Origin: a virus | Taxonomy: Duplodnaviria > Heunggongvirae > Uroviricota > Caudoviricetes | DNA length: 33,263 nt | IMG/VR virus record: IMGVR_UViG_2703718853_000003 | Coordinates: 1-33,263 of that record | Direction: 5' to 3' (one strand) | Shown here: piece by piece, positions 1 through 27,851 of the stretch | Numbering within the stretch: position 1 is the stretch's first letter | How the letters are laid out: each line of letters starts with the position of its first letter | The notes under the pieces: generated by a model | Seen by the model: only the letters and a program-made list of their open reading frames with translations | Told to the model about the DNA's origin: nothing | Databases searched by the model: none | Program-made: the position numbers and the translations under genes

Positions 1-996
1 TTATGGACGCATTATGGACATTCCTGACACCGGGTTAAGAGTCACAGCATCTTGTAAGAAATCCGGTGCAAAGTGTGCGTAGGTCATAGTTTGCTGAATG
101 TTAGAATGACCCAGGATGCGCTGCAATGTGATTATGTTACCTCCATTCATTATAAAATGTGTGGCAAATGTATGCCTCAAAACATGTACTGCTTGTCCGT
201 CAGGTAAATCGGGTTTTACTTCCCTGAGAGCGTTACGCACTTTGTAGTAACTGGCATTAAAAAGCCTGCCTGAATTTTTGGTCTTGATCCGTTTAATCAG
301 GTCCTGCGAAACGGGAATTGTCCTGCGTTTTCCGTTTTTAGTTTTCATAAACGTAACCATCTGGTTAATGATGTGTTCAGCTTTTAAATTAGACACTTCA
401 CTCCAGCGTCCACCAGTAGAAAGGCAGACCAGAGTTGCATTTAATTCATCACCATCGAGCATGGATAACAGCCGCGTAATCTCTTCACTGGACAAAAAAG
501 CCATTTCCGTAACAGCTTCACGTAACCGTTTAATCTCACGGAACGGGTTGTGAGAGTGGTATTCACCGGCGTCAATTAACTTGGTGAACATCCCACTCAT
601 TATTGCCAGATGTCGATTTACGCTGGCTGGTTTTAGACCATCGTTCATCATTACAACGCGATAATCAGTTATCGTTTTCTTTGTTAGCTGGTCAGCTCTG
701 GACACTCCCATTTCTGCAAATTTGGCGATTATTGTCGTTAAACGCCCCCGTTCAATATCTCCACGCTCATGTGATTTTCCGTGATATATCCACCATCTGC
801 CTAACAACTCTGTAAGAGTTCGGCGGTCGGCTGGTTTCTCCAACCACTCTTTGTTGTGGTAGTTAACCAGTACATGACGTTCGAATGCTTGAGCTTCACC
901 TTTAGTTTTAAATTTCCGCCTGATACGTTTTCCATCTGCACCCTGCGGTCTGACGTCCACTTCATAACGACCATCATCGAGCTTTTTAATAGACAT
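1..996 (-). CDS. int: P2-type integrase (tyrosine recombinase)
   Basis: 331-aa minus-strand ORF starting MSIKKLDDGRYEVD, like P2 Int as I recall it. C-terminal R...HxLRHTFAT...Y tyrosine-recombinase motifs. Stop codon lies at positions 1-3, so the window begins at the prophage edge. Confidence 0.9.
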   Translation of the reverse strand: MSIKKLDDGRYEVDVRPQGADGKRIRRKFKTKGEAQAFERHVLVNYHNKEWLEKPADRRTLTELLGRWWIYHGKSHERGDIERGRLTTIIAKFAEMGVSRADQLTKKTITDYRVVMMNDGLKPASVNRHLAIMSGMFTKLIDAGEYHSHNPFREIKRLREAVTEMAFLSSEEITRLLSMLDGDELNATLVCLSTGGRWSEVSNLKAEHIINQMVTFMKTKNGKRRTIPVSQDLIKRIKTKNSGRLFNASYYKVRNALREVKPDLPDGQAVHVLRHTFATHFIMNGGNIITLQRILGHSNIQQTMTYAHFAPDFLQDAVTLNPVSGMSIMRP

Positions 997-1089
997 AAAG
1001 CCCTCCGATGACGCTGTTTACTTCTACTACTTGAAAATTAATGCAATTTTCTTTCGTACATTTACTACACACATATGCTGAATAAATCG

Positions 1090-1389
1090 TCAGCCAGTCT
1101 TCTGGTCTGAGTGGTGCAAGGTTGTTGAGTCTTGCCCAATGTGTGCGAGAGCCGGGGCTATTTGTCCAGCTGCTGGATCTGTTTCATCAAACATGAACCA
1201 GTCACGATACTTGCGAAAGCGTGGATGCTTAAACAGCTTCATACCTGCTTCCATAGGCATTTTTGATTTTCCTGATTCATATCCATGATATGTGTAGTAA
1301 TTAATTCCAATTAATTCAGCAAGTTCCTTAGTTTTAAGGCGTTCGGATTCACGGATGAGCTTTAGTTTCTCACTTTGTTCACTTGACAT
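1090..1389 (-). CDS. C: Immunity repressor C (P2 C-like)
   Basis: ATG at 1389 preceded by GGAG gives 99 aa, the length I recall for P2 C. It is divergent from cox and directly upstream of int, the P2 lysogenic arrangement. The ORF-track start at 1407 is a TTG. Confidence 0.75.
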   Translation of the reverse strand: MSSEQSEKLKLIRESERLKTKELAELIGINYYTYHGYESGKSKMPMEAGMKLFKHPRFRKYRDWFMFDETDPAAGQIAPALAHIGQDSTTLHHSDQKTG

Positions 1390-1407
1390 AATTTTGCTAA
1401 TCTCCAA

Positions 1408-1482
1408 TTATATTGTTACTTGGCAATTTGCGATTCACTCAAAAAGGCTCTAGATGGCTCCAGTTGGTGAATCGCAAATCTT
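1408..1482. promoter_or_regulatory. C/cox divergent switch region with 13-bp perfect inverted repeat (candidate operator and face-to-face promoters)
   Basis: atttgcgattcac at 1426-1438 and its reverse complement gtgaatcgcaaat at 1468-1480, located between the divergent C and cox start codons. Confidence 0.5.
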
Positions 1483-1854
1483 ATGGAGGATAGCAAAGTG
1501 ACGACAAATGTAGAAATTTCTTGTCCAACTAGCGATGAGGCAAGTTTCGAAAATGAAGCCAAACGTAAAAGCATTCAGATTTCAGAGCGCCCATCTGATT
1601 TGCTGTCGAAAGAAGGTTTTGCTCTTTACATCGGTAAGACACCACGCGCGGTGGCTGAAATGGCTAAAGCAGGAAAGCTGCCAGCCTTCTACATGACAGA
1701 CCCATTAAAACCAAGAGGGAAAGCTGAATTATGGATTAATCGCCGTGAGTGGGACAAGTACGCAGCCCAACTGGTTGATGAAGCTCCGACAGAATGGCAT
1801 GACTGGAAAAATCGCATTAGTTACAGCAAATCAAGACATGGCCGTGCGGCTTAA
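1483..1854 (+). CDS. cox: Cox/Apl-like excisionase and transcriptional regulator
   Basis: First rightward gene after the switch. The segment GKTPRAVAEMAKAGKLPAFYMTDP resembles the Cox HTH region. At 123 aa it is longer than P2 Cox (91 aa). The start may instead be GTG 1498, which follows GGAGGA. Confidence 0.6.
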   Translation: MEDSKVTTNVEISCPTSDEASFENEAKRKSIQISERPSDLLSKEGFALYIGKTPRAVAEMAKAGKLPAFYMTDPLKPRGKAELWINRREWDKYAAQLVDEAPTEWHDWKNRISYSKSRHGRAA

Positions 1855-1864
1855 GGTGGAAAGG

Positions 1865-2035
1865 ATGAACGAGCCTCGTTGTATTGCTCAGTTACTGCGT
1901 AACGAAAGCCCCAGGGCGATTGACTTCACCATCACCCACGGTAAGGGGCGTAAGGGAATCATTATCCGCACCAAAAAACAGAGTCCGTTAAAAAAGGCTC
2001 TGACCTTTCTGAAAAGCCGGAGGGTCTGGAAATGA
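1865..2035 (+). CDS. Small early hypothetical protein (P2 orf78 position)
   Basis: ATG at 1865 preceded by AAGGTGGA; 56 aa; its stop overlaps the B start (ATGA). The ORF-track start at 1745 overlaps cox and is less likely. Confidence 0.4.
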   Translation: MNEPRCIAQLLRNESPRAIDFTITHGKGRKGIIIRTKKQSPLKKALTFLKSRRVWK

Positions 2036-2532
2036 CAGTGATGACGCTCAATCTCGTCGAAAAACAGCCAGCAACTATGCGCCGGATAATTGGTAAGCAT
2101 CTGGCCGTCCCTCGCTGGCGGGATACATGTGATTATTATAATCAGATGATGGAGCGCGAACGGTTAACGGTTTGCTTTCATGCGCAGTTAAAACAGCGTC
2201 ACGCAACGATGCGTTTTGAAGAAATGAACGACGTCGAACGTGAACGGCTGGTTTGTGCAATTGATGAATTGCGTGGGGCATTCTCAAAACGCCGTCAGGT
2301 TGGCGCAAGTGAGTATGCATATATTAGTTTTTTAACAGTCAGTCAGCGTCGTACTTTATTTATGCATGCCGGATTGACTGAAAAAGAATTCAACCAGCCA
2401 TACTGGCGAATTAATGAAGAGTCATGTTACTGGCGTGATGCTTTATTCCGTGCATTACGTGAATTATTCAGCCTGTTTGAGTATGCACCGACAATTCTGA
2501 CGTCGGTAAAACCAGAGCAATATCTGCATTAA
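2032..2532 (+). CDS. B: Replication protein B (P2 gpB-like)
   Basis: 166 aa, the length I recall for P2 B, and in the expected position after cox. Confidence 0.7.
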   Translation: MTVMTLNLVEKQPATMRRIIGKHLAVPRWRDTCDYYNQMMERERLTVCFHAQLKQRHATMRFEEMNDVERERLVCAIDELRGAFSKRRQVGASEYAYISFLTVSQRRTLFMHAGLTEKEFNQPYWRINEESCYWRDALFRALRELFSLFEYAPTILTSVKPEQYLH

Positions 2533-2595
2533 GTAATTAACCAGAGTTTTAAACGCACTTAATTGTGCGGGGCTTCTTTTTGCCTGGAGAAAGTC

Positions 2596-2820
2596 ATGCA
2601 TACAGTTTCTGAAAATCAGTGCGGTAAATACGCATTACTGCTGCAACAGGCCAGAACCGAAGCACAGGCCGACGCAGCGACGCGCTTTTCTTCTCATCTT
2701 GATGCCATGATTCGCCACATCACAAAGGCGGAGTTATCCCGCGTAGAGATAGTCGAGCTGCTCAGTCAGGAGTCGGAAAAATTTCACAATATCGGATTGT
2801 CTCGCGGGGAGGTGCTTTGA
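2596..2820 (+). CDS. Early hypothetical protein (P2 orf80 position)
   Basis: ATG at 2596 preceded by GGAGAAAG; 74 aa. Confidence 0.5.
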
Positions 2821-3122
2821 TGTCCTGTTCTCGTTCAGTTGTATTACTGAATAACGCCTTAAAAATCACCGTTATGAAAAATGGCGATTTATCTCTTATT
2901 CAACTTGGTCTTGATAAAGAAAAACGCGAAATAACTGAGTCTGTTATCGCGATTTATCAGAACGAATTAAATCTCCTGTCTGATGTGGTCAATTTACTTG
3001 TTAAGCGCGCTGTATTTCACAAGCAAATCTCCTCCGTGGATGAACTGACGAAATTAACGACAGAAATTGCCAGCTATTGCGCTGATGAATTTAAAAAACT
3101 TAACGACAAAAGGAGCTGGTAA
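2820..3122 (+). CDS. Early hypothetical protein (P2 orf81 position)
   Basis: ATG at 2820 overlaps the upstream stop and is preceded by GGGGAGGTG; 100 aa. Confidence 0.5.
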   Translation: MSCSRSVVLLNNALKITVMKNGDLSLIQLGLDKEKREITESVIAIYQNELNLLSDVVNLLVKRAVFHKQISSVDELTKLTTEIASYCADEFKKLNDKRSW

Positions 3123-3346
3123 TGCCGGACAACGTAGATTTTATTCAGGAACAACAGGCTGAATTACTGGAGCGTCAGATTAACGCGGCAAGGGTAAAAC
3201 ATGGCGGTGCTTCTGCGCTGGTTTGCGAAGAGTGTGACGCGCCAATACCTGCTGCCCGTCGTGCGGCTTACCCGTCAGCCACGCGTTGTGTTTCCTGTCA
3301 GTCAGTCTTTGAAGCAAAAAACAAACATTACCGGAGAACGGCATGA
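3122..3346 (+). CDS. TraR/DksA-family C4 zinc-finger protein (P2 orf82 position)
   Basis: 74 aa with CEECDAPIP...CVSCQ, a C4 zinc finger typical of phage TraR/DksA-like proteins. Start overlaps the upstream stop (TAATG). Confidence 0.7.
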   Translation: MPDNVDFIQEQQAELLERQINAARVKHGGASALVCEECDAPIPAARRAAYPSATRCVSCQSVFEAKNKHYRRTA

Positions 3347-3618: not shown

Positions 3619-5728
3619 AGCCTCCGGGCGTTTTGTCCCTCCGTCAGCATTTGCCGCAGGCACCGGTAAGGCGTTTACCGGTGCTTATGCATGGAACGCG
3701 CCACGCGAGGCTGTCGGGCGCGAAAGACCCCTTACACGTGACGAGATGCGTCAGGTGCAAGGTGTTTTATCCACGATTAACCGCCTGCCTTACTTTTTGC
3801 GCTCGCTGTTTACTTCACGCTATGACTACATCCGGCGCAATAAAAGCCCGGTACACGGGTTTTATTTCCTCACATCCACTTTTCAGCGTCGTTTATGGCC
3901 GCGCATTGAGCGTGTGAATCAGCGCCATGAAATGAACACCGACGCGTCGTTGCTGTTTCTGGCAGAGCGTGACCACTATGCGCGCCTGCCGGGAATGAAT
4001 GACAAGGAGCTGAAAAAGTTTGCCGCCCGTATCTCATCGCAGCTTTTCATGATGTATGAGGAACTCAGCGATGCCTGGGTGGATGCGCATGGCGAAAAAG
4101 AATCGCTGTTTACGGATGAGGCGCAGGCTCACCTGTATGGTCATGTTGCTGGCGCTGCACGTGCTTTCAATATTTCCCCTCTCTACTGGAAAAAATACCG
4201 TAAAGGACAGATGACCACGAGGCAGGCATATTCTGCCATTGCCCGTCTGTTTAACGATGAGTGGTGGACTCATCAGCTTAAAGGCCAGCGTATGCGCTGG
4301 CATGAGGCGTTACTGATTGCTGTCGGGGAGGTCAATAAAGACCGTTCTCCTTATGCCAGTAAACATGCCATTCGTGATGTGCGTGCGCGCCGCCAGGCAA
4401 ATCTGGAATTTCTTAAATCGTGTGACCTTGAAAACAGGGAAACCGGCGAGCGCATCGACCTTATCAGTAAGGTGATGGGCAGTATTTCTAATCCTGAAAT
4501 TCGCCGGATGGAGCTGATGAACACCATTGCCGGTATTGAGCGTTACGCCGCCGCAGAGGGTGATGTGGGGATGTTTATCACGCTGACCGCGCCGTCAAAG
4601 TATCACCCGACACGTCAGGTCGGAAAAGGCGAAAGTAAAACCGTCCAGCTAAATCACGGCTGGAACGATGAGGCATTTAATCCAAAGGATGCGCAGCGTT
4701 ATCTCTGCCGTATCTGGAGCCTGATGCGCACGGCATTCAAGGATAATGACTTACAGGTCTACGGTTTGCGTGTCGTCGAGCCACACCACGACGGAACGCC
4801 GCACTGGCATATGATGCTTTTTTGTAATCCACGCCAGCGTAACCAGATTATTGAAATCATGCGTCGCTACGCGCTCAAAGAGGATGGAGACGAAAGAGGA
4901 GCTGCGCGAAACCGTTTTCAGGCAAAACACCTTAACCGGGGCGGTGCTGCGGGGTATATCGCGAAATACATCTCAAAAAACATCGATGGCTATGCACTGG
5001 ATGGTCAGCTCGATAACGACACCGGCAGGCCGCTGAAAGACACAGCCGCGGCTGTTACCGCATGGGCGTCAACGTGGCGCATACCACAATTTAAAACGGT
5101 TGGCCTGCCGACAATGGGGGCTTACCGTGAACTACGCAAATTGCCCCGCGGCGTCAGCATTGCTGATGAGTTTGACGAGCGCGTCGAGGCTGCACGCGCC
5201 GCCGCAGACAGTGGTGATTTTGCGCTGTATATCAGCGCGCAGGGCGGGGCAAATGTCCCGCGCGATTGTCAGACTGTCAGGGTCGCCCGTAGTCCGTCGG
5301 ATGACGTTAACGAGTACGAGGAAGAAGTCGAGAGAGTGGTCGGCATTTACGCGCCGCATCTCGGCGCGCGTCATATTCATATCACCAGAACGACGGACTG
5401 GCACATTGTGCCGAAAGTTCCGGTCGTTGAGCCTTTGACTTTAAAAAGCGGCATCGCCGCGCCTCGGAGTCCTGTCAATAACTGTGGAAAGCTCTCCGGT
5501 GGTGATGCTTCGTTACCGGCTCCCACACCTTCTGAGCACGCCGCAGCAGTGCTTAATCTGGTTGATGACGGTGTTATCGAATGGAATGACCCGGAGGTCG
5601 TGAGGGCGCTCAGGGGCGCATTAAAACACGGGCTGAGAACGCCAAATCGTCAGCAAGGAAACGGAAGCCCGTTAAAACCACATGAAATAGCACCGTCGGG
5701 CAGATTGAACAGGTGGGAACGATTGTAA
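3608..5728 (+). CDS. A: Replication initiation endonuclease A (rolling-circle HUH nickase)
   Basis: About 706 aa from ATG 3608. Contains HWHMMLF (HUH motif) and a YIAKYISK catalytic-tyrosine motif. The track start at 3566 overlaps the previous gene more, so the internal ATG was preferred. Confidence 0.85.
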   Translation: MAVKASGRFVPPSAFAAGTGKAFTGAYAWNAPREAVGRERPLTRDEMRQVQGVLSTINRLPYFLRSLFTSRYDYIRRNKSPVHGFYFLTSTFQRRLWPRIERVNQRHEMNTDASLLFLAERDHYARLPGMNDKELKKFAARISSQLFMMYEELSDAWVDAHGEKESLFTDEAQAHLYGHVAGAARAFNISPLYWKKYRKGQMTTRQAYSAIARLFNDEWWTHQLKGQRMRWHEALLIAVGEVNKDRSPYASKHAIRDVRARRQANLEFLKSCDLENRETGERIDLISKVMGSISNPEIRRMELMNTIAGIERYAAAEGDVGMFITLTAPSKYHPTRQVGKGESKTVQLNHGWNDEAFNPKDAQRYLCRIWSLMRTAFKDNDLQVYGLRVVEPHHDGTPHWHMMLFCNPRQRNQIIEIMRRYALKEDGDERGAARNRFQAKHLNRGGAAGYIAKYISKNIDGYALDGQLDNDTGRPLKDTAAAVTAWASTWRIPQFKTVGLPTMGAYRELRKLPRGVSIADEFDERVEAARAAADSGDFALYISAQGGANVPRDCQTVRVARSPSDDVNEYEEEVERVVGIYAPHLGARHIHITRTTDWHIVPKVPVVEPLTLKSGIAAPRSPVNNCGKLSGGDASLPAPTPSEHAAAVLNLVDDGVIEWNDPEVVRALRGALKHGLRTPNRQQGNGSPLKPHEIAPSGRLNRWERL

Positions 5729-5949
5729 ATACCCCATATAAGAGTTGTTCTTGCTCAACATGGCATCTGAACGCAAAGATAAAAGCCTGGGAGGCATACA
5801 GATAGTCCTGCTGTAAGTTAGTTGGAAAAAGATTGATTTACTTTATTACAGGAAGCCTCGATAAAATAATTCTAACGTGGATAAGGATATAAATTTATTA
5901 TAATGAATCTGTCAATATTATAATAAATGTTATTTTTAAAGAGATGAAA

Positions 5950-5985
5950 GGTAGGGTTGTTGTTTGTTGGTTTTTGTGATATAAT
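5950..5985 (+). promoter_or_regulatory. Candidate sigma70 promoter with extended -10 (TGaTATAAT) for the cargo ATPase operon
   Basis: TGATATAAT at 5977-5985 with a TTGTTG-like -35 about 18 bp upstream, inside an AT-rich intergenic region about 40 bp before the ATPase start. Confidence 0.4.
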
Positions 5986-6025
5986 ATTAAATTCATGTAA
6001 CTAGTAAATGCAAATGGAAAAAAGC

Positions 6026-7162
6026 ATGAGAATAAAATCACTGGAGACATATAACTCTCACAGTAAATTGAAAATTAATAAAATAGAATTCAAATCACTG
6101 ACCTTATTGGTTGGTGCTTCAGGTGTAGGGAAAACACAAATACTTCGTTCTATCAATAAAATAAAGTCTATCGCACATGGTGATTCCGTTAGTGGGTTTT
6201 GCTGGAACGTTGAGTTTAATGCTGAAGGTAATGATTATCAATGGTCTGGTGAGTTTGAGGCGCTGGAGGATTATGATGATTTTACTTATGGAATGTTTCA
6301 TTTTGATGATGACGACAAGGTTGAACCAAAAATTATAAAAGAAGAAGTTAAAATCAATGGTTCAATTATTATCACCAGAAGTGGCGATGATATCGTTTAT
6401 AATGACAGTAAAACAGTTAAGCTGGCTTCTACAGTTAGTATAGTTCATCACTTGCGTGAGGAAGATGATATTTCGGTTATACACAAGTCATTTTCACGAA
6501 TTGTGCAAGTTGATGATGATGAAATGCATAAGGTGTTTCCTAGAAAAAATAAAGATGCTTCAGAGGATGAAGAGCTTAGCATCAATGATATCAGAGAGAA
6601 GTCATTCTCTTTGAGTGCTAAGTTGTATTTGTGTCAAGAAAAACAACCAGTCTACTTTCATCAAATTAAAAATTCATTTGTGGAGATTTTTCCATATATT
6701 GAAGATATAAAGGTGGTTAAGGTTGATACAAGAGGGATTCCTTTCTTTGTTCATTCTGTATATGCACTCAAGGTTAAGGAAAGAGGGATTGATGAGTGGA
6801 TTTCGCACAATTCAATGTCTACCGGGATGTTGAAAACATTTGTCCAACTGGCATATCTGCATCTTAGCCCGACGGGAACTGTGTTCTTAATTGATGAGTT
6901 CGAGAATGGCTTTGGTGTTAACTGTATTAATGATATAACAGATGTGCTACTACATCATGGTAATGATGTTCAGTTTATTTTGACGAGTCATCATCCTTAT
7001 ATTATAAATAACATACCGCTTGATAACTGGAAAATTATTTCAAGGAAGGCCGGGGTTGTTGATAACTATTCTGCGGATTTTTTTAATTTAAAAGAATCCA
7101 ATCATGAGGCGTTTACTAAATTAATAAATTTAAGCGTTTATTTTGATGGTGCGGATAGATGA
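6026..7162 (+). CDS. ABC/SMC-like P-loop ATPase (AAA_15/AAA_21-like; OLD N-terminal / AriA-like), cargo gene
   Basis: Walker A GASGVGKT, ABC-signature-like SMSTGMLK, Walker B VFLIDEFENG, H-loop-like LTSHHP. The N-terminus MRIKSLE is typical of this ATPase class. Start could also be ATG 6008 or 6014. AT-rich codon usage unlike the backbone. Confidence 0.8.
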   Translation: MRIKSLETYNSHSKLKINKIEFKSLTLLVGASGVGKTQILRSINKIKSIAHGDSVSGFCWNVEFNAEGNDYQWSGEFEALEDYDDFTYGMFHFDDDDKVEPKIIKEEVKINGSIIITRSGDDIVYNDSKTVKLASTVSIVHHLREEDDISVIHKSFSRIVQVDDDEMHKVFPRKNKDASEDEELSINDIREKSFSLSAKLYLCQEKQPVYFHQIKNSFVEIFPYIEDIKVVKVDTRGIPFFVHSVYALKVKERGIDEWISHNSMSTGMLKTFVQLAYLHLSPTGTVFLIDEFENGFGVNCINDITDVLLHHGNDVQFILTSHHPYIINNIPLDNWKIISRKAGVVDNYSADFFNLKESNHEAFTKLINLSVYFDGADR

Positions 7163-7869
7163 ATTTGTATATTTTGGCTGAGGGGCGACAAACAGAGCGC
7201 AGAATCTATCCGGCATGGATAGGCGTTCTATCTCCATCTTTAAAGCAAGTTGAGTGTTTGTCTGCAATAGATAAAAACAACTATTATTTTATAAGCGGCG
7301 AGGGATATCCTCGTATGATTGATGTGACGCTTATTAATGCAATTAAAGATATACATGATAACCCTAAATTTACCGATTTTTGGGTTGTGCTAGACTCTGA
7401 AGGAGAGGATGTTGAGGCAAGGAGAGAGCTTGTTAGAAATAAGATTGATTCTTCTGGTATAGATATATCTCATTGTGAAGTAAATATAATAGTTCAAAAT
7501 CCGTGCATAGAAACGTGGGGGCTAGGGAATCGAGTCATTATTTCGCCAAATAAGTTGACTGAATCTTTTTTGGACTATTATGAGCACTATGATGTGTCAT
7601 CCAATGATCCAGAGGGTATGGGGAAGCCTCTTGCCTATGACGGATCAATTGCTAAGTATCACGAGAGTTATTTAAAAAGTATGCTTGCTTTAAGAAATGC
7701 AATGTATACGAAAAAAAATCCAGCAGCATTGATGGAGCCTTCATATTTGCAACAGCTTATATCCAGAGCTTATGCTGAGGATGGACATATACCAAGCTTT
7801 AGGCATTTTCATACGTTGGCTACTCAGCTTGAGGCTAAAGCGAAAATGTTGGAAAGCCGTGTAGCGTAG
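7159..7869 (+). CDS. Small TOPRIM-like partner protein (DUF4276/DUF4435-like, putative nuclease), cargo gene
   Basis: 236 aa; start ATG overlaps the ATPase stop (ATGA). N-terminal LYILAEG (conserved Glu) and VVLDSEGED (acidic DxE/D cluster) fit a TOPRIM-like signature. The family call is inferred from motifs only. Confidence 0.6.
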   Translation: MNLYILAEGRQTERRIYPAWIGVLSPSLKQVECLSAIDKNNYYFISGEGYPRMIDVTLINAIKDIHDNPKFTDFWVVLDSEGEDVEARRELVRNKIDSSGIDISHCEVNIIVQNPCIETWGLGNRVIISPNKLTESFLDYYEHYDVSSNDPEGMGKPLAYDGSIAKYHESYLKSMLALRNAMYTKKNPAALMEPSYLQQLISRAYAEDGHIPSFRHFHTLATQLEAKAKMLESRVA

Positions 7870-20633: not shown

Positions 20634-22883
20634 ATGAGCACAAAATTCAAAACCGTTATCACCACTGCCGGTGCAGCAAAGCTGGCAGCGGCAACCGCGC
20701 CGGGAGGGCGGAAGGTCAACATTACCACGATGGCCGTCGGGGATGGCGGTGGTAAATTGCCTGTCCCGGATGCCGGACAGACCGGGCTTATCCACGAAGT
20801 CTGGCGACATGCGCTGAACAAAATCAGCCAGGACAAACGAAACAGTAATTATATTATCGCAGAGCTGGTTATTCCGCCGGAGGTGGGCGGTTTCTGGATG
20901 CGTGAGCTTGGCCTGTACGATGATGCTGGAACGTTAATTGCCGTGGCGAACATGGCTGAAAGTTATAAGCCAGCTCTTGCCGAAGGCTCAGGGCGTTCGC
21001 AGACCTGCCGCATGGTCATCATCGTCAGCAGTGTGGCCTCAGTGGCGCTGACCATTGACACCACAACGGTGATGGCAACGCAGGATTACGTTGATGACAA
21101 AATTGCAGAACATGAACAGTCACGACGTCACCCGGACGCCTCGCTGACCGCCAAAGGTTTTACTCAGTTAAGCAGTGCGACCAACAGCACGTCTGAAACA
21201 CTCGCCGCAACACCAAAAGCGGTAAAAGCAGCATATGACCTTGCTAACGGGAAATACACTGCACAGGACGCCACCACAGCGCGAAAAGGCCTTGTCCAGC
21301 TCAGTAGTGCCACCAACAGCACGTCTGAAACGCTCGCCGCAACACCAAAAGCGGTAAAAGCAGCATATGACCTTGCTAACGGGAAATACACTGCACAGGA
21401 CGCCACCACAGCGCGAAAAGGCCTTGTCCAGCTCAGTAGCGCCACCAACAGCGATTCTGAAACGCTTGCGGCAACGCCAAAGGCGGTTAAGACAGCGTAT
21501 GACCTTGCTAACGGGAAATACACTGCACAGGATGCCACCACAGCGCGAAAAGGTCTTGTCCAGCTCAGTAGCGCCACCAACAGTGATTCTGAAACGCTGG
21601 CTGCAACACCAAAAGCGGTGAAGTCTGCCTATGACAATGCTGAAAAACGTCTTCAGAAAGATCAGAACGGTGCGGATATTCCTGATAAAGGACGCTTCCT
21701 GAGTAACATTAATGTTTACAGCAAAGGTGAAGTGGATAAGAAAAAGGGAATGCGAAAGTATTCGTTTGCAGCCCCTGCAAATGTCGTTGCCGGGAAGTGG
21801 TATCCCGTTATCTTTCGCCGTGCTGCCAGCCTTTCAGGAGAAATGGCATCCCGCGTCGTTATTTCAACTGGTTGTTATAACGGCGATTATGTAATGAATA
21901 ACTGCGAGTTTAATGGCATGGTTATGCCCGGAGGCTGGACCGATCGTGGTTCATATGCGGCAGGTTATTTCTGGACGTATCAGACTAATGAGCGTTCAAT
22001 CCATTCCATTGTTACAAGCCTGAAAGATGATGATGTATGTAGTGTTTTTTATGTTGAAGCCAGAGCTTTCCCAGTACAAATTCTTGCAGAGGAAGGGCTA
22101 ACGGTTATTGTTCCGACAGAGGATTATGTCGTCGGTCAGACGACATATAAGTGGGGGGCAACTAATCCCGCTACAGAAAGCACGAACGTACAGGCTATTC
22201 TGGATTTTAAAAATGGACGTGGTTATTACTGTTCACATCCATTTATTTCCAGCCTTTCAGGAAATGCTGCAACAGCAACTAAGTTAGCGAACGCAAGAAA
22301 TATTAATGGTGTCAGATTTGATGGCTCTGCCGATATAAATATTAATACACTGGTATCCAGAAACCGTGTTACTGCATTAGGTGGGAGCGTAAAGGGGACA
22401 CCAGGTATTCAGATGTATGAGGCATACAACAATGGCTACCCAACAGCCTATGGTAATGTGCTTCATCTCACTGGCGTAACCGCTGTAGGAGAGGGTGAGT
22501 TACTTATTGGCTGGAGTGGAACCAGCGGTGCTCATGCTCCGGCATATATTCGCTCCCGACGAGATACCACAGATGCTAACTGGTCTGGATGGGCGCAACT
22601 ATATACAACTGCTCATAAACCCTCAGCGGGAGATGTTGGTGCATACACCAAAGCTGAGTCAGATTCACGTTATGTGAGAGACATGCGGCTGGGCGGTGCA
22701 TCTACATATAAACCAGCAAATAATGGTACTACATGGACGCATCAGGCTCCGTCAGGTTGCGTATATACCGGCATTATTGTTCAGGATACCGGCTCAAACT
22801 CTGCCGATAACATTGGTGGCGTATATTACAGACCGGTGCAGAAATACATTAACGGGACATGGTATAACGTGGCGCAGGTATAA
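20634..22883 (+). CDS. H: Tail fibre protein H
   Basis: 749 aa. Conserved N-terminus, tandem tail-fibre repeats in the middle, and an AT-richer divergent C-terminal (receptor-binding) part. Confidence 0.85.
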   Translation: MSTKFKTVITTAGAAKLAAATAPGGRKVNITTMAVGDGGGKLPVPDAGQTGLIHEVWRHALNKISQDKRNSNYIIAELVIPPEVGGFWMRELGLYDDAGTLIAVANMAESYKPALAEGSGRSQTCRMVIIVSSVASVALTIDTTTVMATQDYVDDKIAEHEQSRRHPDASLTAKGFTQLSSATNSTSETLAATPKAVKAAYDLANGKYTAQDATTARKGLVQLSSATNSTSETLAATPKAVKAAYDLANGKYTAQDATTARKGLVQLSSATNSDSETLAATPKAVKTAYDLANGKYTAQDATTARKGLVQLSSATNSDSETLAATPKAVKSAYDNAEKRLQKDQNGADIPDKGRFLSNINVYSKGEVDKKKGMRKYSFAAPANVVAGKWYPVIFRRAASLSGEMASRVVISTGCYNGDYVMNNCEFNGMVMPGGWTDRGSYAAGYFWTYQTNERSIHSIVTSLKDDDVCSVFYVEARAFPVQILAEEGLTVIVPTEDYVVGQTTYKWGATNPATESTNVQAILDFKNGRGYYCSHPFISSLSGNAATATKLANARNINGVRFDGSADININTLVSRNRVTALGGSVKGTPGIQMYEAYNNGYPTAYGNVLHLTGVTAVGEGELLIGWSGTSGAHAPAYIRSRRDTTDANWSGWAQLYTTAHKPSAGDVGAYTKAESDSRYVRDMRLGGASTYKPANNGTTWTHQAPSGCVYTGIIVQDTGSNSADNIGGVYYRPVQKYINGTWYNVAQV
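21156..21645 (+). repeat. About 3.7 tandem copies of a 132-bp (44-aa) in-frame phage tail-fibre repeat inside H
   Basis: Repeated LSSATNS(T/D)SETLAATPKAVKAAYDLANGKYTAQDATTARKGLVQ units with nearly identical nucleotide sequence. This is what produces the long antisense ORF 21164..21580. Confidence 0.85.
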
Positions 22884-22886
22884 TTT

Positions 22887-23414
22887 ATGCAGCATTTAAA
22901 AAATATTACGGCGGGTAATCCAAAAACGGTTGAACAATATCAATTGACAAAGGACTTTGATGTTGTCTGGTTTTTTTCTGAAGATGGTAAGAACTGGTAC
23001 GAAGAACAAAAGTATTTTGCTGATGACACGATAAAAATAGCGTACGACAAAGATAATATCATCCGCTATGTGGAAAAGGATGTGACAGCTATCAGACCGG
23101 ATGGATTAAGTATTGTTGAAGTGGCGGATATTACTGCTAACCGACGGGCGGACATTTCAGGGAACTGGATGTTTAAGGACGGCAAAGTGATTAAACGCAT
23201 TTATACGGCAGAGGAATTACAGCAGCAGGCAGAAATTCAGAAAGCCAGACTTCTTGCAGATGCTGAATCCGTGATTTTGCCGCTGGAGCGCGCGGTCAGA
23301 CTGAACATGGCAACAGATGAGGAGCGCACACGGCTGGAGGCTTGGGAACGCTACAGCGTTGTGGTCAGTCGTGTAGATCCTGCAAATCCTGAATGGCCGG
23401 AAATGCCGCAATAA
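22887..23414 (+). CDS. G: Tail fibre assembly protein G
   Basis: 175 aa, the length I recall for P2 G, directly after H. Confidence 0.85.
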
Positions 23415-23592
23415 GTTGTATGAACTCTTGTGTGAGCTTACATACCTATAGAACAGAGTAAAGCCTAATCTGACAGTCCGCTCTGTGCCAGGAGCGGACG
23501 TTACTGACATCACAATGTGTTAATCAATAGAGAGCAGGTCACCATAATGTCATGGGTATCGCTGGTGATATGATCGCAATACACGACAATTA

Positions 23593-24267
23593 TTATTTAA
23601 TGATTTTAAAAAGTTCATTGTAGCTACAACCTTTGAATATTTCGAACTGATCATGGTAATTTGAATAAGCGCTTGCCATCATTCCGATATAACTATCCCA
23701 TGATGACTCAGAAACTACCCTTTCACCACGCTCTAATTCATCAATTAAAATATAAATAATATTAAATTGTGCAACAAGAGCAGTGTAGGTGGTGATGAGA
23801 TTATTTAGAAGGTCTGAATGATTAGGTTTGATTTTCCACAAACCAAAACTATCCCGAATTGCAACTAATTCGAATCGTAAATCTTTTGACTCAGAAAGTA
23901 ACTCCCTCCCACTTGTAGTGAGATGCTTGTAGAGTATGGGGTTCTCACTTTTTATTCTTGGCTGTATAGAAATAAGTGATTGATAACATTGATGATTTAA
24001 GTCCTTTGATCGAAACATGCTGTCGATGAACAATGTAGTTCTCTCGAAAGCCTTTTCTGATTTTTTGTTTTTAATCCATTCATTTACCCTTGTTAATGCA
24101 TAAATCGCTAGTCCAAGTGTTATTGTTGAAACTGTTGCAGTAATTGTTGATGGTTCAATTTTTTTAAAAAACCAGATATCAATCCATGCAAAAGAGACTG
24201 AGCCGAGATACATAAACAACATGTGACTCGCGAAGTATTCCCAAACACCTTTTAAATAGCTTTTCAT
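23593..24267 (-). CDS. Small membrane protein (two predicted N-terminal TM helices), cargo gene of unknown function
   Basis: AT-rich minus-strand ORF. The second ATG (24267) is preceded by AAGGA; the first ATG is at 24282. Hydrophobic stretches HMLFMYLGSVSFAWIDIWFF and ITATVSTITLGLAIYAL. A TATAAT-like -10 lies just upstream on the minus strand (plus 24290-24295). Confidence 0.6.
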   Translation of the reverse strand: MKSYLKGVWEYFASHMLFMYLGSVSFAWIDIWFFKKIEPSTITATVSTITLGLAIYALTRVNEWIKNKKSEKAFERTTLFIDSMFRSKDLNHQCYQSLISIQPRIKSENPILYKHLTTSGRELLSESKDLRFELVAIRDSFGLWKIKPNHSDLLNNLITTYTALVAQFNIIYILIDELERGERVVSESSWDSYIGMMASAYSNYHDQFEIFKGCSYNELFKIIK

Positions 24268-24443
24268 GTAGATCCTTAACATTTTCTTAATTATATTTTA
24301 TGGTGGTATTTTTGTTAGTATCGGCATGGATTAGAAATAGTTGATACTTTTATGCCCTGAGAGCATGAAAACTGGAAAAGCCTTGCTCATGATATAAATA
24401 GTGTTAGTTGCCACTGCTTTGGAAGTTATCCTTTAAATGGGCT

Positions 24444-24700
24444 ATCGGAAAGCCAGACTTCTAGCAGATGCTGAATCCGTGATTTTGCCGCTGGAGCGCG
24501 CTGTCAGGCTGAATATGGCAACAGATGAGGAGCGCAGTCGACTGGAGGCATGGGAACGCTACAGCGTTCTGGTCAGTCGTGTGGATCCTGCAAATCCTGA
24601 ATGGCCGGAAATGCCGCAAGAAGTTGTATGAGCTCTGGTGTGAACTTACATATCTATGGCACAGAGTAAAGCCTAATCTGACAGTCCGCTCTGTGCCGAA
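24444..24700 (+). repeat. Degenerate direct duplicate of the 3' end of G plus its downstream sequence (G' remnant)
   Basis: About 250 bp highly similar to 23236-23490. The encoded [57 protein letters not shown] copies the G C-terminus, with the G stop changed to a sense codon. Not an independent gene. Confidence 0.8.
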
Positions 24701-24921
24701 GCTAGCAAAGCCATGGTCCTTTCGCAGCAAGTTGCGTAAATAAGGCGTTTTTATCTCTTGAAGCATTCTACAAAGCCAACTCCTCGCTCAAACAGACGTG
24801 TCTGTTCAGCAATCTGCCCGCTTGGTATCAAGGGACGCCAGTAACGCGATACCGGGTGAATTCCTTCCTTAACTGCCCTCACATCATCTTTAATAATAGT
24901 TTACCCTGATATAACGGATGA

Positions 24922-26301
24922 TCAGAAGTCAATCAGGTCATCGAATTTCTGAGGTGGCTCTTGTTTTCGAACGCTATCTCCCTGATGAATCTCCGTCTCA
25001 CTTGTTTGGTATTTTACACCAGTAATTTTATGATAAGTCATACTGTTGGTTTTCAACAGTAGTGCATCATTTTTGTCATGCGAGGATGAAAATGAACCCA
25101 TATGTCTCGGTTTTATTTGTTCCTCAACTATCAACTGAATTTCCGGAACAAAAGCATACTGGTCATCTTCGATGTGTTCATACATCTCAACATTATATCG
25201 GCGAGATTTATCTGCGGCATGCCTGACGCCGGAAGACTTATTAAACAGAACGACATTATATCCTGTCTCAGCATCCTCACCGTTGGCATCTACCTGGGTA
25301 GATTTAAAGCTGACACCATCAAGCTTAAATTTATTTCGGTCACCTAGGTAATCGGCAACCACTTGGGTGATGAGGTAATCACTGTCCTGCCTTTTTCCAA
25401 AAGTAGGAAGCGTCAACTTACGGGAAAGCGTACTGAAAAAAATCGCGCGCTCACTGGTTTTGCGAGTCTGAGGATCAAATTTACTACCTGAGCCGAAACT
25501 AATCGAGTCAAGGGCAGAAATGTCCAGCACTTTTAGCTCGCGTAACGGTATAAAACAGGCCGTTACTACAATACTGCCGACGGGCGGCCTTACTTCAGCA
25601 ATTGCCAAATTCACTGAGGTTGCACCGTAAAATACTGAAATCCCCTGTGCGTTCATACGGCCCGACCGAGCCAAAGTTGTTGGGGGAGGTCCAAAATTTT
25701 TCTCGGGATGCTCCAAGGCTTGCTTTACTTCCTCTTGGTCCTCAAAAACCCTTGCACGAAAAAGATGAACCTCATCAGTCAGAGTTTTTATCGGTGAATT
25801 ACTGTCTCTGTTTTTTAGTTTATCGATATCACTGAAAAGTGAATCCAGGAAATCATTAACTTCACGGTTAAAATATCGTGTTTCTTTCATAAGGGAGTCA
25901 GTGGCTTTACTCCAGGTATGCGCAAGCTCTCCGCTATAGTGATTTATGTGCCGATAAAGAAACCCGTCATTATACCGGATGTAGTCATAATCGTTATGCG
26001 GATTATATTCATCACAAAGAAGTTCATAAATATCTTCAGCTACGTCCCATTCGACGCCCAGTTCTCCGTAGATGACATCCTGCGCGCTATCACCGCGCCC
26101 GGAATCATAGATATCCTCATATATATCATAATAGTACTCAAAAACCTCATTCATCATCTTGAGAATATATTTGAGGTGGATGTTTTTACGCTTCCTTTTG
26201 CAGTAAGAGCAAATCTGAAAATTATTTCCAGTTTTTATTATATGCTGCATGACATATTTATCGTTCACGCATTTATGACAAATATACTTATCTTCCCACA
26301 T
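24922..26301 (-). CDS. RES-domain protein with N-terminal zinc ribbon (candidate NAD+-targeting abortive-infection effector), cargo gene
   Basis: 459 aa, AT-rich, minus strand. N-terminal CHKC-x19-CSYC zinc ribbon. RES signature LFRARV ... SGRMNAQGISVFYGATSVNLAIAEV ... DGVSFKS...GYNVVLFN at about aa 178-356 (roughly nt 25234-25770). Domain call is by motif recognition only. Confidence 0.65.
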   Translation of the reverse strand: MWEDKYICHKCVNDKYVMQHIIKTGNNFQICSYCKRKRKNIHLKYILKMMNEVFEYYYDIYEDIYDSGRGDSAQDVIYGELGVEWDVAEDIYELLCDEYNPHNDYDYIRYNDGFLYRHINHYSGELAHTWSKATDSLMKETRYFNREVNDFLDSLFSDIDKLKNRDSNSPIKTLTDEVHLFRARVFEDQEEVKQALEHPEKNFGPPPTTLARSGRMNAQGISVFYGATSVNLAIAEVRPPVGSIVVTACFIPLRELKVLDISALDSISFGSGSKFDPQTRKTSERAIFFSTLSRKLTLPTFGKRQDSDYLITQVVADYLGDRNKFKLDGVSFKSTQVDANGEDAETGYNVVLFNKSSGVRHAADKSRRYNVEMYEHIEDDQYAFVPEIQLIVEEQIKPRHMGSFSSSHDKNDALLLKTNSMTYHKITGVKYQTSETEIHQGDSVRKQEPPQKFDDLIDF

Positions 26302-26537
26302 TTTTTACTCACTCATCATCAGCTGATACAGGGTCACTTTCCTGCAATTTTATAATTAAATCAAGCATAAAAACCCTCTTCACACATTAATGCTTTCAGT
26401 GTGAAAATAATTAGTGGTGCACTGTACTGATAATAATTACGAACTTCCGCTTCTCGCTCAAAGCAGACTGTCAGATTTGATAGCGTTTGGGCTATGTAAA
26501 TTGTCAGTCGTAAAATTAGTGAGTACAAATCAGGACA

Positions 26538-26564
26538 GGCGGGCGGATTGCCCGCCTTTTCTTT
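26538..26564 (+). terminator. Rho-independent terminator between the cargo island and FI
   Basis: ggcgggc / gcccgcc stem (26538-26544 and 26550-26556) followed by TTTTCTTT. Confidence 0.55.
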
Positions 26565-26660
26565 ATCTGTTGTTTCATCCACTGACCAGCCAGGTCAAAT
26601 AGCGTCTCATGCTCTGCACAACAGAAAATAGTTGCACCCATTAACCACGGAGTTAAACGG

Positions 26661-27851
26661 ATGAGTGACTATCATCACGGCGTGCAGGTGCTGGAGATTA
26701 ACGACGGCACCCGCGTCATTTCCACCGTATCCACGGCCATTGTCGGCATGGTCTGCACGGCCAGCGATGCGGATGCGGAAACCTTCCCCCTCAATAAACC
26801 TGTGCTGATTACCAATGTGCAGAGCGCAATTGCAAAGGCCGGTAAAAAAGGCACGCTGGCGGCATCGTTGCAGGCCATCGCCGACCAGTCAAAACCGGTC
26901 ACCGTTGTCGTGCGCGTGGAAGACGGCACCGGCGACGACGAAGAAACGAAACTCGCGCAGACCGTTTCCAATATCATCGGCACCACCGACGAAAACGGTC
27001 AGTACACCGGACTGAAAGCCCTGCTGGCGGCGGAGTCGGTAACCGGTGTTAAACCGCGTATTCTCGGCGTGCCGGGACTGGACACCAAAGAGGTGGCTGT
27101 TGCACTGGCATCAGTCTGTCAGAAGCTGCGCGCTTTCGGGTATATCAGCGCATGGGGCTGTAAAACCATTTCCGAGGTGAAAGCTTACCGCCAGAATTTC
27201 AGCCAGCGTGAGCTGATGGTCATCTGGCCGGATTTCCACGCATGGGATACGGTCACCAGTACCGCCGCCACCGCGTATGCCACCGCCCGTGCGCTGGGTC
27301 TGCGCGCTAAAATCGACCAGGAGCAGGGCTGGCATAAAACGTTGTCCAATGTCGGGGTGAACGGTGTTACCGGCATCAGCGCCTCTGTATTCTGGGATTT
27401 GCAGGAGTCCGGCACCGATGCTGACCTGCTTAACGAGTCTGGCGTCACAACGCTGATTCGCCGCGACGGTTTTCGCTTCTGGGGTAACCGTACCTGCTCT
27501 GATGACCCGCTGTTCCTCTTTGAAAACTACACCCGCACCGCGCAGGTGCTGGCCGACACGATGGCTGAGGCGCACATGTGGGCGGTGGACAAGCCAATCA
27601 CCGCAACGCTGATTCGCGACATCGTTGATGGCATCAATGCCAAATTCCGAGAGCTGAAAACAAACGGCTATATCGTGGATGCGACCTGCTGGTTCAGCGA
27701 AGAATCCAACGATGCGGAAACCCTTAAGGCCGGAAAACTGTATATCGACTACGACTATACCCCGGTGCCTCCTCTTGAAAACCTGACTCTGCGCCAGCGT
27801 ATTACCGATAAATACCTGGCAAATCTGGTCACCTCGGTTAACAGCAATTAA
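26661..27851 (+). CDS. FI: Tail sheath protein FI
   Basis: 396 aa, the length I recall for P2 FI; GGAG Shine-Dalgarno upstream. Confidence 0.9.
   Translation: MSDYHHGVQVLEINDGTRVISTVSTAIVGMVCTASDADAETFPLNKPVLITNVQSAIAKAGKKGTLAASLQAIADQSKPVTVVVRVEDGTGDDEETKLAQTVSNIIGTTDENGQYTGLKALLAAESVTGVKPRILGVPGLDTKEVAVALASVCQKLRAFGYISAWGCKTISEVKAYRQNFSQRELMVIWPDFHAWDTVTSTAATAYATARALGLRAKIDQEQGWHKTLSNVGVNGVTGISASVFWDLQESGTDADLLNESGVTTLIRRDGFRFWGNRTCSDDPLFLFENYTRTAQVLADTMAEAHMWAVDKPITATLIRDIVDGINAKFRELKTNGYIVDATCWFSEESNDAETLKAGKLYIDYDYTPVPPLENLTLRQRITDKYLANLVTSVNSN

Follow-up and report, generated by a model that had tools for sequence, protein, structure and literature searches.

The 33,263-nt stretch of DNA analyzed here (IMG/VR record IMGVR_UViG_2703718853_000003; hereafter, the window) consists almost entirely of one P2-like (Peduovirus) prophage, in which the integrase, GPA, the late genes, H, G, FI and GPD are recognizable. 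The region between its tail fibre assembly gene, G, and its tail sheath gene, FI, is the classical Z/fun variable locus of P2-like phages. In the window, this locus holds a cassette that we term A, a second and partial copy of G (G'), a module encoding a RES-domain protein and then a terminator-like hairpin of the backbone. Comparison of these sequences with those of related prophages indicates that the second copy of the 3' end of G is probably a piece of P2 backbone that was trapped between two cargo modules when two related phages were joined out of register. The initial annotation of this region had described the repeat as a recombination scar of cassette stacking, left by successive homologous recombination events that were anchored on the 3' end of G. 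While the outline of that proposal was right, its mechanism was not, and a single illegitimate join is favoured over serial homologous recombination.

Pairwise alignment of positions 23237-23489 with 24445-24697 showed that the repeat comprises 253 nt, 235 of which are identical (92.9%), with no gaps and a start-to-start distance of 1208 nt (MAFFT, repeat search and column count). The duplication, originally placed at 23236-23490 and 24444-24698, is thus real, with coordinates within 1-2 nt of those first given, and its length and identity within a 33-kb window exclude a chance origin. Copy 1 (plus strand) contains the third base of codon 117, codons 118-175 and the stop codon (i.e., the last 178 nt of G), followed by 75 nt of downstream P2 backbone. 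Copy 2, the G' remnant (plus strand), contains codons 118-175 and, after the mutated stop, ~77 nt from downstream of G; the first ~55 nt of these are backbone, and the remainder is the constant half (24675-24697) of a second left border motif, the L motif described below. The resident G (22887-23414, plus strand; 175 aa) is intact and matches the Pfam family Caudo_TAP (PF02413, E 1.2e-33) over profile positions 2-131 of 131; its AHB5 equivalent is likewise intact in the RefSeq annotation. Copy 2 lacks codons 1-117, and only positions 71-131 of the 131 in the profile were matched; its stop codon is mutated, as had been noticed, from TAA to GAA, which extends the frame by three codons, to 24631. 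The Prokaryotic Genome Annotation Pipeline (PGAP) calls copy 2 a pseudogene, i.e., an incomplete tail fibre assembly protein gene ("incomplete; missing N-terminus"). The partial Pfam profile, the lost stop, the PGAP call and the deletion of its start in strain 19SZHZ663Rt support the view that G' is a non-functional remnant.

Comparison with loci fetched from other genomes (denoted by the prefix L) showed that copy 2 is 98.0% identical to the intact G of L019 (strain 89-3156) and 96.8% identical to that of L006, as against 92.9% to copy 1. All but one or two of the differences in copy 2 are shared with intact alleles: the TAA to GAA change is the sole substitution private to all of the G' copies compared, and one further change was seen in the window only. 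In addition, the coding differences between copies 1 and 2 are nearly all synonymous, with two amino acid changes in 57 residues. Since the copy-2 variants are shared with working G alleles, the scattered substitutions are allelic and do not reflect decay of a duplicate, which also implies that the scar is young. By this comparison, the two copies derive from two different P2-like genomes. These observations bear directly on an in situ origin, in which the 3' region of G was duplicated in tandem, cassette A was then inserted and the spare copy slowly diverged. Such an origin would account for direct, gapless repeats in the same orientation, but the copies are not each other's closest relatives, the near-synonymous differences fit divergence of a working gene and not decay, and cassette A has its own L motif at its left end and is truncated at its right end. 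We therefore regard it as very improbable.

The junction termed J2 lies at 24444/24445, where the right flank of cassette A is joined non-homologously to codon 117/118 of the second G allele. The window reads ...AAATGGGCTA/TCGGAAAGCC at this point, and both parental states were found elsewhere: cassette A in L008 reads ...AAATGGGCTA/CTCTCC, and G in L019 and L006 reads ...GCAGAAAA/TCGGAAAGCC. At most 1 nt is common to the cassette A flank and G at this position, indicating an illegitimate join as opposed to a homologous crossover. J2 falls 31 nt short of the R-type (right border) motif that cassette A has in L008. The right end of copy 2 (24697/24698), at ...CTGTGCC, coincides with the point where 36 different types of cargo leave the backbone. 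Because copy 2 ends at this canonical border, G' and the RES module together look like an ordinary G-RES-FI hotspot placed behind a truncated cassette A. The order of elements in the window is accordingly G, L, A, G', L (constant half), RES, R and FI. As the initial annotation implied, the remnant lies between cargo modules that are separable, as A occurs without RES in L008 and RES occurs without A in L002.

Taken as a whole, these junctions would be explained if one genome carried G (allele 1), an L motif and cassette A, and a second genome carried G (allele 2), an L motif, the RES module, an R motif and FI. One non-homologous, out-of-register join would have linked the right flank of cassette A in genome 1 to codon 117/118 of G in genome 2. 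The 7% divergence of the copies would have pre-existed as different alleles, and the stop codon of G' would have mutated after the join. The composite was later copied as a block into a cassette array beside pinE, and it is also decaying. Whereas the repeat and its allelic origin, the sequences at the junctions, the independence of the modules, the block copy and the decayed variants are seen directly, we infer the sequence of events and the completeness of the two parental phage genomes.

The alternative favoured by the initial annotation, in which the locus was filled stepwise by homologous recombination anchored on the conserved 3' end of G, is in our estimation unlikely. The 3' end of G is indeed widely conserved, the 253-nt copy-2 query matching 1401 of the 5426 complete E. 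coli genomes searched. Homologous exchange within G, however, replaces the cargo without duplicating G, so the pure form of this model fails, and J2 is without homology, such that the stack needed a non-homologous join. A workable form would be homology-facilitated illegitimate recombination, wherein a fragment consisting of the 3' end of G, L and A pairs at its left and joins illegitimately at its right, upstream of the anchor; this can yield the observed product but likewise needs one illegitimate join. The data fit such a fragment-based event and a whole-genome unequal crossover alike. To see how commonly G fragments accompany stacked cargo, we compared 65 G-FI hotspots: that of the window, those of four records of E. 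coli or phages, and those of the 60 IMG/VR relatives, out of 80, in which G and FI were both present. These hotspots hold 36 distinct cargo contents with lengths of 1077-3661 nt, and an extra G fragment was found in one of the 36 only, the window's own arrangement. Multi-cassette hotspots other than that of the window are split by conserved R and L motifs and not by G'. The absence of G' from the other cargo types indicates that G-anchored stacking is not the general route, and the scar should not be read as typical of how cassettes stack.

Several observations weigh against a single out-of-register join of two P2-like genomes. Single-cassette parents (G-RES-FI or G-A-FI) were not found by megablast with window positions 22800-26700 in the 5426 complete E. 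coli genomes or the phage collection, and an exact junction search of IMG/VR gave stacked or transferred forms only. A junction search of one genome per GTDB species returned 12 matches, none with detectable similarity to the region of the window. Neither could the parents be identified by flank linkage: the identities of H, the 5' part of G, the copies, the right flank and FI correlate at ~0 across the fetched P2-like loci, indicating that P2 genomes are too mosaic for this purpose. As to the right end of G', the second L motif has a degenerate half on its RES side (~5 of 12 matches to the consensus by eye), and the same RES end abuts motif-less DNA in L002. The boundary at 24697/24698 could thus itself be an older illegitimate join and not a canonical cassette border. 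Lastly, in L003 and L012, which are ~99% identical to the window, the end of copy 1 bears copy-2-type variants (L003 3438-3703 against window 23237-23502), a pattern suggestive either of conversion of one repeat by the other or of alleles being traded with other phages. The copies, or their alleles, keep exchanging sequence, blurring their history.

The A-G'-RES block was also found outside of a P2 backbone. L001, L011, L013 and L014 contain window positions 23476-26468 at 99.5-99.6% identity and have the same foreign flanks as one another. This second site adjoins pinE and tail fibre genes in a prophage remnant without P2 backbone, forms part of a hairpin-delimited cassette array and occurs in several E. 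coli genomes and IMG/VR contigs. G' carries P2-type sequence downstream of G, indicating that the block was assembled in P2 and then exported to the other locus. Two variants show decay of the block. L009 (strain 19SZHZ663Rt) has the same foreign flanks and a 106-bp deletion corresponding to window 24351-24456, and in L004 (strain UTAK-5) an IS1 element (IS1 region, L004 2812-3579) replaces window 23611-24321, removing nearly all of gene A and its promoter and leaving G' and RES intact. Judging from these copies, the composite now behaves as one cassette.

The deletion in L009 bears on whether G' is retained because it is useful, either as a 64-aa C-terminal tail fibre chaperone fragment or in a spacing or regulatory capacity between the transcription units of RES and A. 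An open reading frame (ORF) of 64 aa does cross the junction (24437-24631, plus strand), its ATG and next two codons coming in frame from the flank of cassette A and the rest from G', and the A-G'-RES block is highly conserved in two genomic contexts. Nevertheless, L009-type strains lack the ATG of this ORF and the first 12 nt of G' and keep both cargo genes, which is evidence against a functional G'. In addition to the loss of the natural stop, no clear ribosome-binding site was seen by eye upstream of the ATG, and the high conservation fits a young age. The chimeric ORF is most likely not a gene, and a useful G' seems to us scarcely credible.

We compared the ends of the hotspots in detail. 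Matches of other P2-like phages to the window run to 23502 (to 23538 in L007) and resume from 26442-26446, with unrelated cargo interposed. The left border motif, L (23467-23502, plus strand), joins a constant half, AATCTGACAGTCCGCTCTGTGCC, to a cassette-linked half, AGGAGCGGACGTT, and has a hairpin at 23476-23499; the right border motif, R (26442-26477, minus strand), consists of a cassette-linked half, AACTTCCGCTTC, and a constant half, TCGCTCAAAGCAGACTGTCAGATT. Over their 36 nt the two motifs are 83% complementary, and the L motif forms an 8-bp hairpin with a DNA folding energy of -9.5 kcal/mol (z -2.6). Among the 36 cargo types, the mean majority fraction at the left border was 0.99 within AATCTGACAGTCCGCTCTGTGCC, 0.81 in the next 13 nt (consensus AGGAGCGGACGTT) and 0.41 beyond, and that at the right border was 0.38 in unrelated sequence, then 0.72 within AACGTCCGCTCC and 0.97 within TCGCTCAAAGCAGACTGTCAGATT. 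The motif consensus can therefore be written as GTCCGCTCTGTGCC/AGGAGCGGACGTT for L and AACGTCCGCTCC/TCGCTCAAAGCAGAC for R, the variable halves of which are reverse complements at the consensus level. In short, hairpin motifs of ~27 nt (L, GTCCGCTCTGTGCCAGGAGCGGACGTT; R, its imperfect inverse) bound unrelated cassettes. Border repeats are already known for P2, from GenBank records tied to a 2004 study: AJ512680 and AJ512685 annotate a "left" and a "right inverted repeat" that correspond to window ~23387-23501 and 26444-26534, with L falling within the left repeat of both records and R within the right repeat of AJ512680. An Rfam scan of 23300-26700 gave a single, chance-level match.

Where cassettes are stacked, the junction consists of R, an 18-nt linker and L, a total of 81 nt, and forms an imperfect palindrome of ~75 nt. 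This R-linker-L junction is present, unannotated, in 793 of the 5426 complete E. coli genomes, two-cassette P2 hotspots included. Motif sites beyond the window were located at L001 3950-4030, L017 4500-4571, L018 4492-4563 and L117 4001-4074. Cassettes bounded by the motifs also occur in the pinE-adjacent array, in lambdoid prophages, where they follow the replication genes (L002, L018 and L101, the last just after gene P), and in islands of the chromosome (L008, L017, L115 of Nissle and L116 of O157). One more module, the fourth to be shared, is a Lit-family cassette common to a P2 hotspot and an island, with both of its ends in motifs; in all, four shared modules have ends in or at motifs. 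On this basis, a general system of cassette exchange may have the L and R motifs as its ends, in which case they would not belong to the P2 backbone; we put this proposal forward tentatively and hold it to be possible rather than probable.

Evidence for a particular mechanism of exchange was mixed. Left and right ends showed no significant cassette-specific pairing, with 8.41 matches as compared with 8.21 when permuted: 826 of 5000 permutations were as good as the observed complementarity, and an attC-like covariation was thus not detected. No recombinase was identified for the motifs, the sole recombinase gene identified in the window being that of the prophage integrase. Some motif-delimited arrays enclose a gene for a 200-aa Fim-like tyrosine recombinase with a match to PF00589 only (L017 6110-6712, L018 6541-7143 and L115 2342-2944), which is followed by a gene of the "ETEC_3214 family" in L017 and L115 of Nissle and by an unnamed hypothetical gene in L018. 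It may be the recombinase of the cassettes or merely cargo, as position cannot tell actor from cargo. The sharp step in conservation and the motif-placed ends of modules fit site-specific recombination and short-arm homologous exchange equally. A site-specific recombination cassette was reportedly proposed for the Z/fun locus in the 2004 study of P2. A literature search with the motif strings returned no relevant paper.

Integron attC sites and the pdif modules of Acinetobacter are short palindromic elements that flank unrelated accessory genes, and promoter-stem-loop cassettes (PeSLs) of T4-type phages were reportedly described by Arbiol et al. in 2010. The motifs reported here resemble all three in being short, conserved stem-loops or palindromes that lie on either side of unrelated accessory genes and at which modules shared by different backbones end. 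However, the sequence of the window motif is unrelated to theirs, there is no integron integrase or Xer-type site, and the ends do not covary beyond the shared consensus. Core sites of attC read RYYYAAC and GTTRRRY, and an IntI integrase heads the array; by eye, the motif consensus is unlike these sites.

Cassette A spans 23465-24444 and has a low G+C content. Its limits are given by the copy without G' in L008, a chromosomal island of strain CU42ET-1, in which 4963-5942 corresponds to these window positions at 99.1% identity. There, L008 runs for 31 nt past the homology to a degenerate R-type motif (5974-6000), whereas the right end in the window is truncated and its own R motif is missing. 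We considered whether the right end shared by the window and L008 might be a site-specific end and rejected this; L008 keeps the ancestral flank, such that homology must stop at the window's breakpoint. The cargo gene of cassette A (23593-24267, minus strand) encodes a protein of 224 aa, beginning MKSYLK as in RefSeq and all homologues, or of 229 aa from an upstream ATG. A minus-strand gene of about this length between the copies was thus correctly anticipated. A promoter-like site on the minus strand (24318-24290) matches at 10 of 12 positions. Separately, plasmids of Enterobacter, Klebsiella, Citrobacter and related genera contain unannotated intergenic stretches that match the non-coding region upstream of gene A (24287-24436) at 71-75%; the one inspected is in an IncHI2A plasmid (L010 2501-2629). 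This region may be a shared promoter or regulatory element.

The gene A product was at first taken to be a two-transmembrane protein. Two N-terminal hydrophobic helices are indeed present, and the assignment is plausible though not firm, as their Kyte-Doolittle 19-residue peaks (1.53 and 1.46) fall just below the usual cut-off of 1.6 and AlphaFold confidence is low there. The AlphaFold2 model consists of an N-terminal helical hairpin, which is a probable two-helix membrane hairpin, and a C-terminal four-helix bundle (mean predicted local distance difference test score, pLDDT, 75). Searching the model against the PDB returned generic four-helix bundles only (best E 6e-3) and no significant structural neighbour, and the protein had no match in Pfam, PADLOC, NCBIfam or PHROGs. 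Its family amounts to 12 clusters among 5.8 billion sequences. All source-named members are from Enterobacteriaceae, and the contexts are P2-like, lambdoid and P1-like phage, which suggests a phage-borne accessory protein and possibly a candidate exclusion factor. All homologues are 224 aa long; the first ~85 residues, comprising the hydrophobic hairpin and a basic juxtamembrane stretch, are near-invariant, and the C-terminal ~140 fall to ~45% identity. Such a pattern would be expected for a constant effector with a variable sensing part.

The RES module (24698-26441) was delimited by border alignment, its left end being the position where constant sequence meets cassette-specific sequence in other hotspots. 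It contains a gene for a 459-aa protein (24922-26301, minus strand) with a RES domain (PF08808, E 4.2e-14; 53.3 bits against a cut-off of 23.2), named "RES family NAD+ phosphorylase" in RefSeq. The N-terminus has a weak likeness to the HEPN/RES NTD1 family (PF18870), at 21.1 bits under its cut-off of 27.4 bits. No PADLOC-DB 2.0 model matched the A, RES or G' ORF at E values up to 0.1. As noted above, the module occurs on its own in the lambdoid prophage locus L002 (4001-5783), where it adjoins a Lit-family gene and matches window 24696-26469 at 97.1% identity. Among the toxins of RES-Xre toxin-antitoxin systems, the MbcT type is an NAD+ phosphorylase. The window protein shares with these toxins a RES domain above the Pfam cut-off but differs in being a single protein of 459 aa with a long N-terminal extension. 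In addition, no Xre-type gene is adjacent in the ORF list: the ORFs adjoining 24922-26301 are short and unconserved, and RefSeq annotation of the block lists no helix-turn-helix neighbour, the neighbouring ORFs themselves not having been scanned for such domains. By its domain, the RES protein is a candidate NAD+-targeting effector.

H, G and FI were identified by Pfam, and the backbone is collinear with P2 records. FI (26661-27851, plus strand; Phage_sheath_1, Phage_sheath_1C and Gp18_domIII_N) forms the right flank of the hotspot, and an intrinsic-terminator-like hairpin with a T run (26537-26557, plus strand), 3' of the hotspot and 5' of FI, is present in all of the hotspots aligned. Elsewhere in the prophage, a second P2 hotspot, between the replication gene A and the portal gene, contains an AbiL-like pair (6008-7869, plus strand) made up of an AAA_21 ATPase (PADLOC AbiLi, E 8e-19) and a weakly AbiLii-like partner. 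The tail fibre gene H contains, at 21153-21641 (plus strand), three overlapping 225-nt units at 132-nt spacing that are 83-90% identical to the reference copy and encode its Phage_fiber_2 repeats.

Comparison with the published Z/fun records of P2 (GenBank AJ512680-AJ512685; Nilsson, Karlsson and Haggard-Ljungquist, Mol Biol Evol 2004) showed the same G-FI site and the same border repeats, with unrelated cargo in each phage. The annotations of AJ512680 and AJ512685 list no duplicated G fragment, and the stack in the window differs in that a remnant of backbone, as opposed to a repeat junction, links its cassettes. In two later studies, of P2-like phages and P4 satellites, the hotspots are described as sites where accessory or defence genes turn over rapidly (Rousset et al., 2022, PMC9122126; Moura de Sousa et al., 2026, PMC13586616). 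The latter reports that about half of all pseudogenes are in defence-associated loci, many resembling core genes, and that near-identical defence genes occur in other elements and cryptic chromosomal sites (PMC13586616). L001, L002 and L008 of the present work parallel the copies described there. The mechanism of exchange (homologous, illegitimate or transposon-borne) is left open in both papers (PMC9122126, PMC13586616), and term searches of them found no mention of hairpin border motifs. The case in the window resolves one scar to the base.

In the mosaic-genome model of phage evolution, one out-of-register, non-homologous join of collinear genomes duplicates the intervening backbone, which is the structure seen in the window. 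That model describes a general process and not a defined family, and the window exemplifies, at high resolution, an event of a familiar kind: an ordinary recombination scar, yet one readable to the base, in which two hotspot cargo modules were stacked by one illegitimate join. A composite so formed can travel as a single unit to another locus, and the scar dates and orients these events. The 253-nt direct repeats that it creates could delete cassette A again. The rare, 224-aa probable membrane protein and the 459-aa RES-domain protein are candidates for phage-exclusion assays.

The motif-delimited cassettes are a more interesting lead than the scar, as they bear on the mechanism by which defence genes are exchanged. 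Comparison of the borders revives an under-used, GenBank-recorded observation and extends the motifs to other prophage types and islands. If the motifs do bound a general exchange system, the A-G'-RES block would be a natural tracer of it, built in P2 and later taken as one cassette into another array. A dedicated recombinase, or phage single-strand annealing on portable arms of ~25-40 nt, would then explain the movement of defence genes between P2 and unrelated elements.

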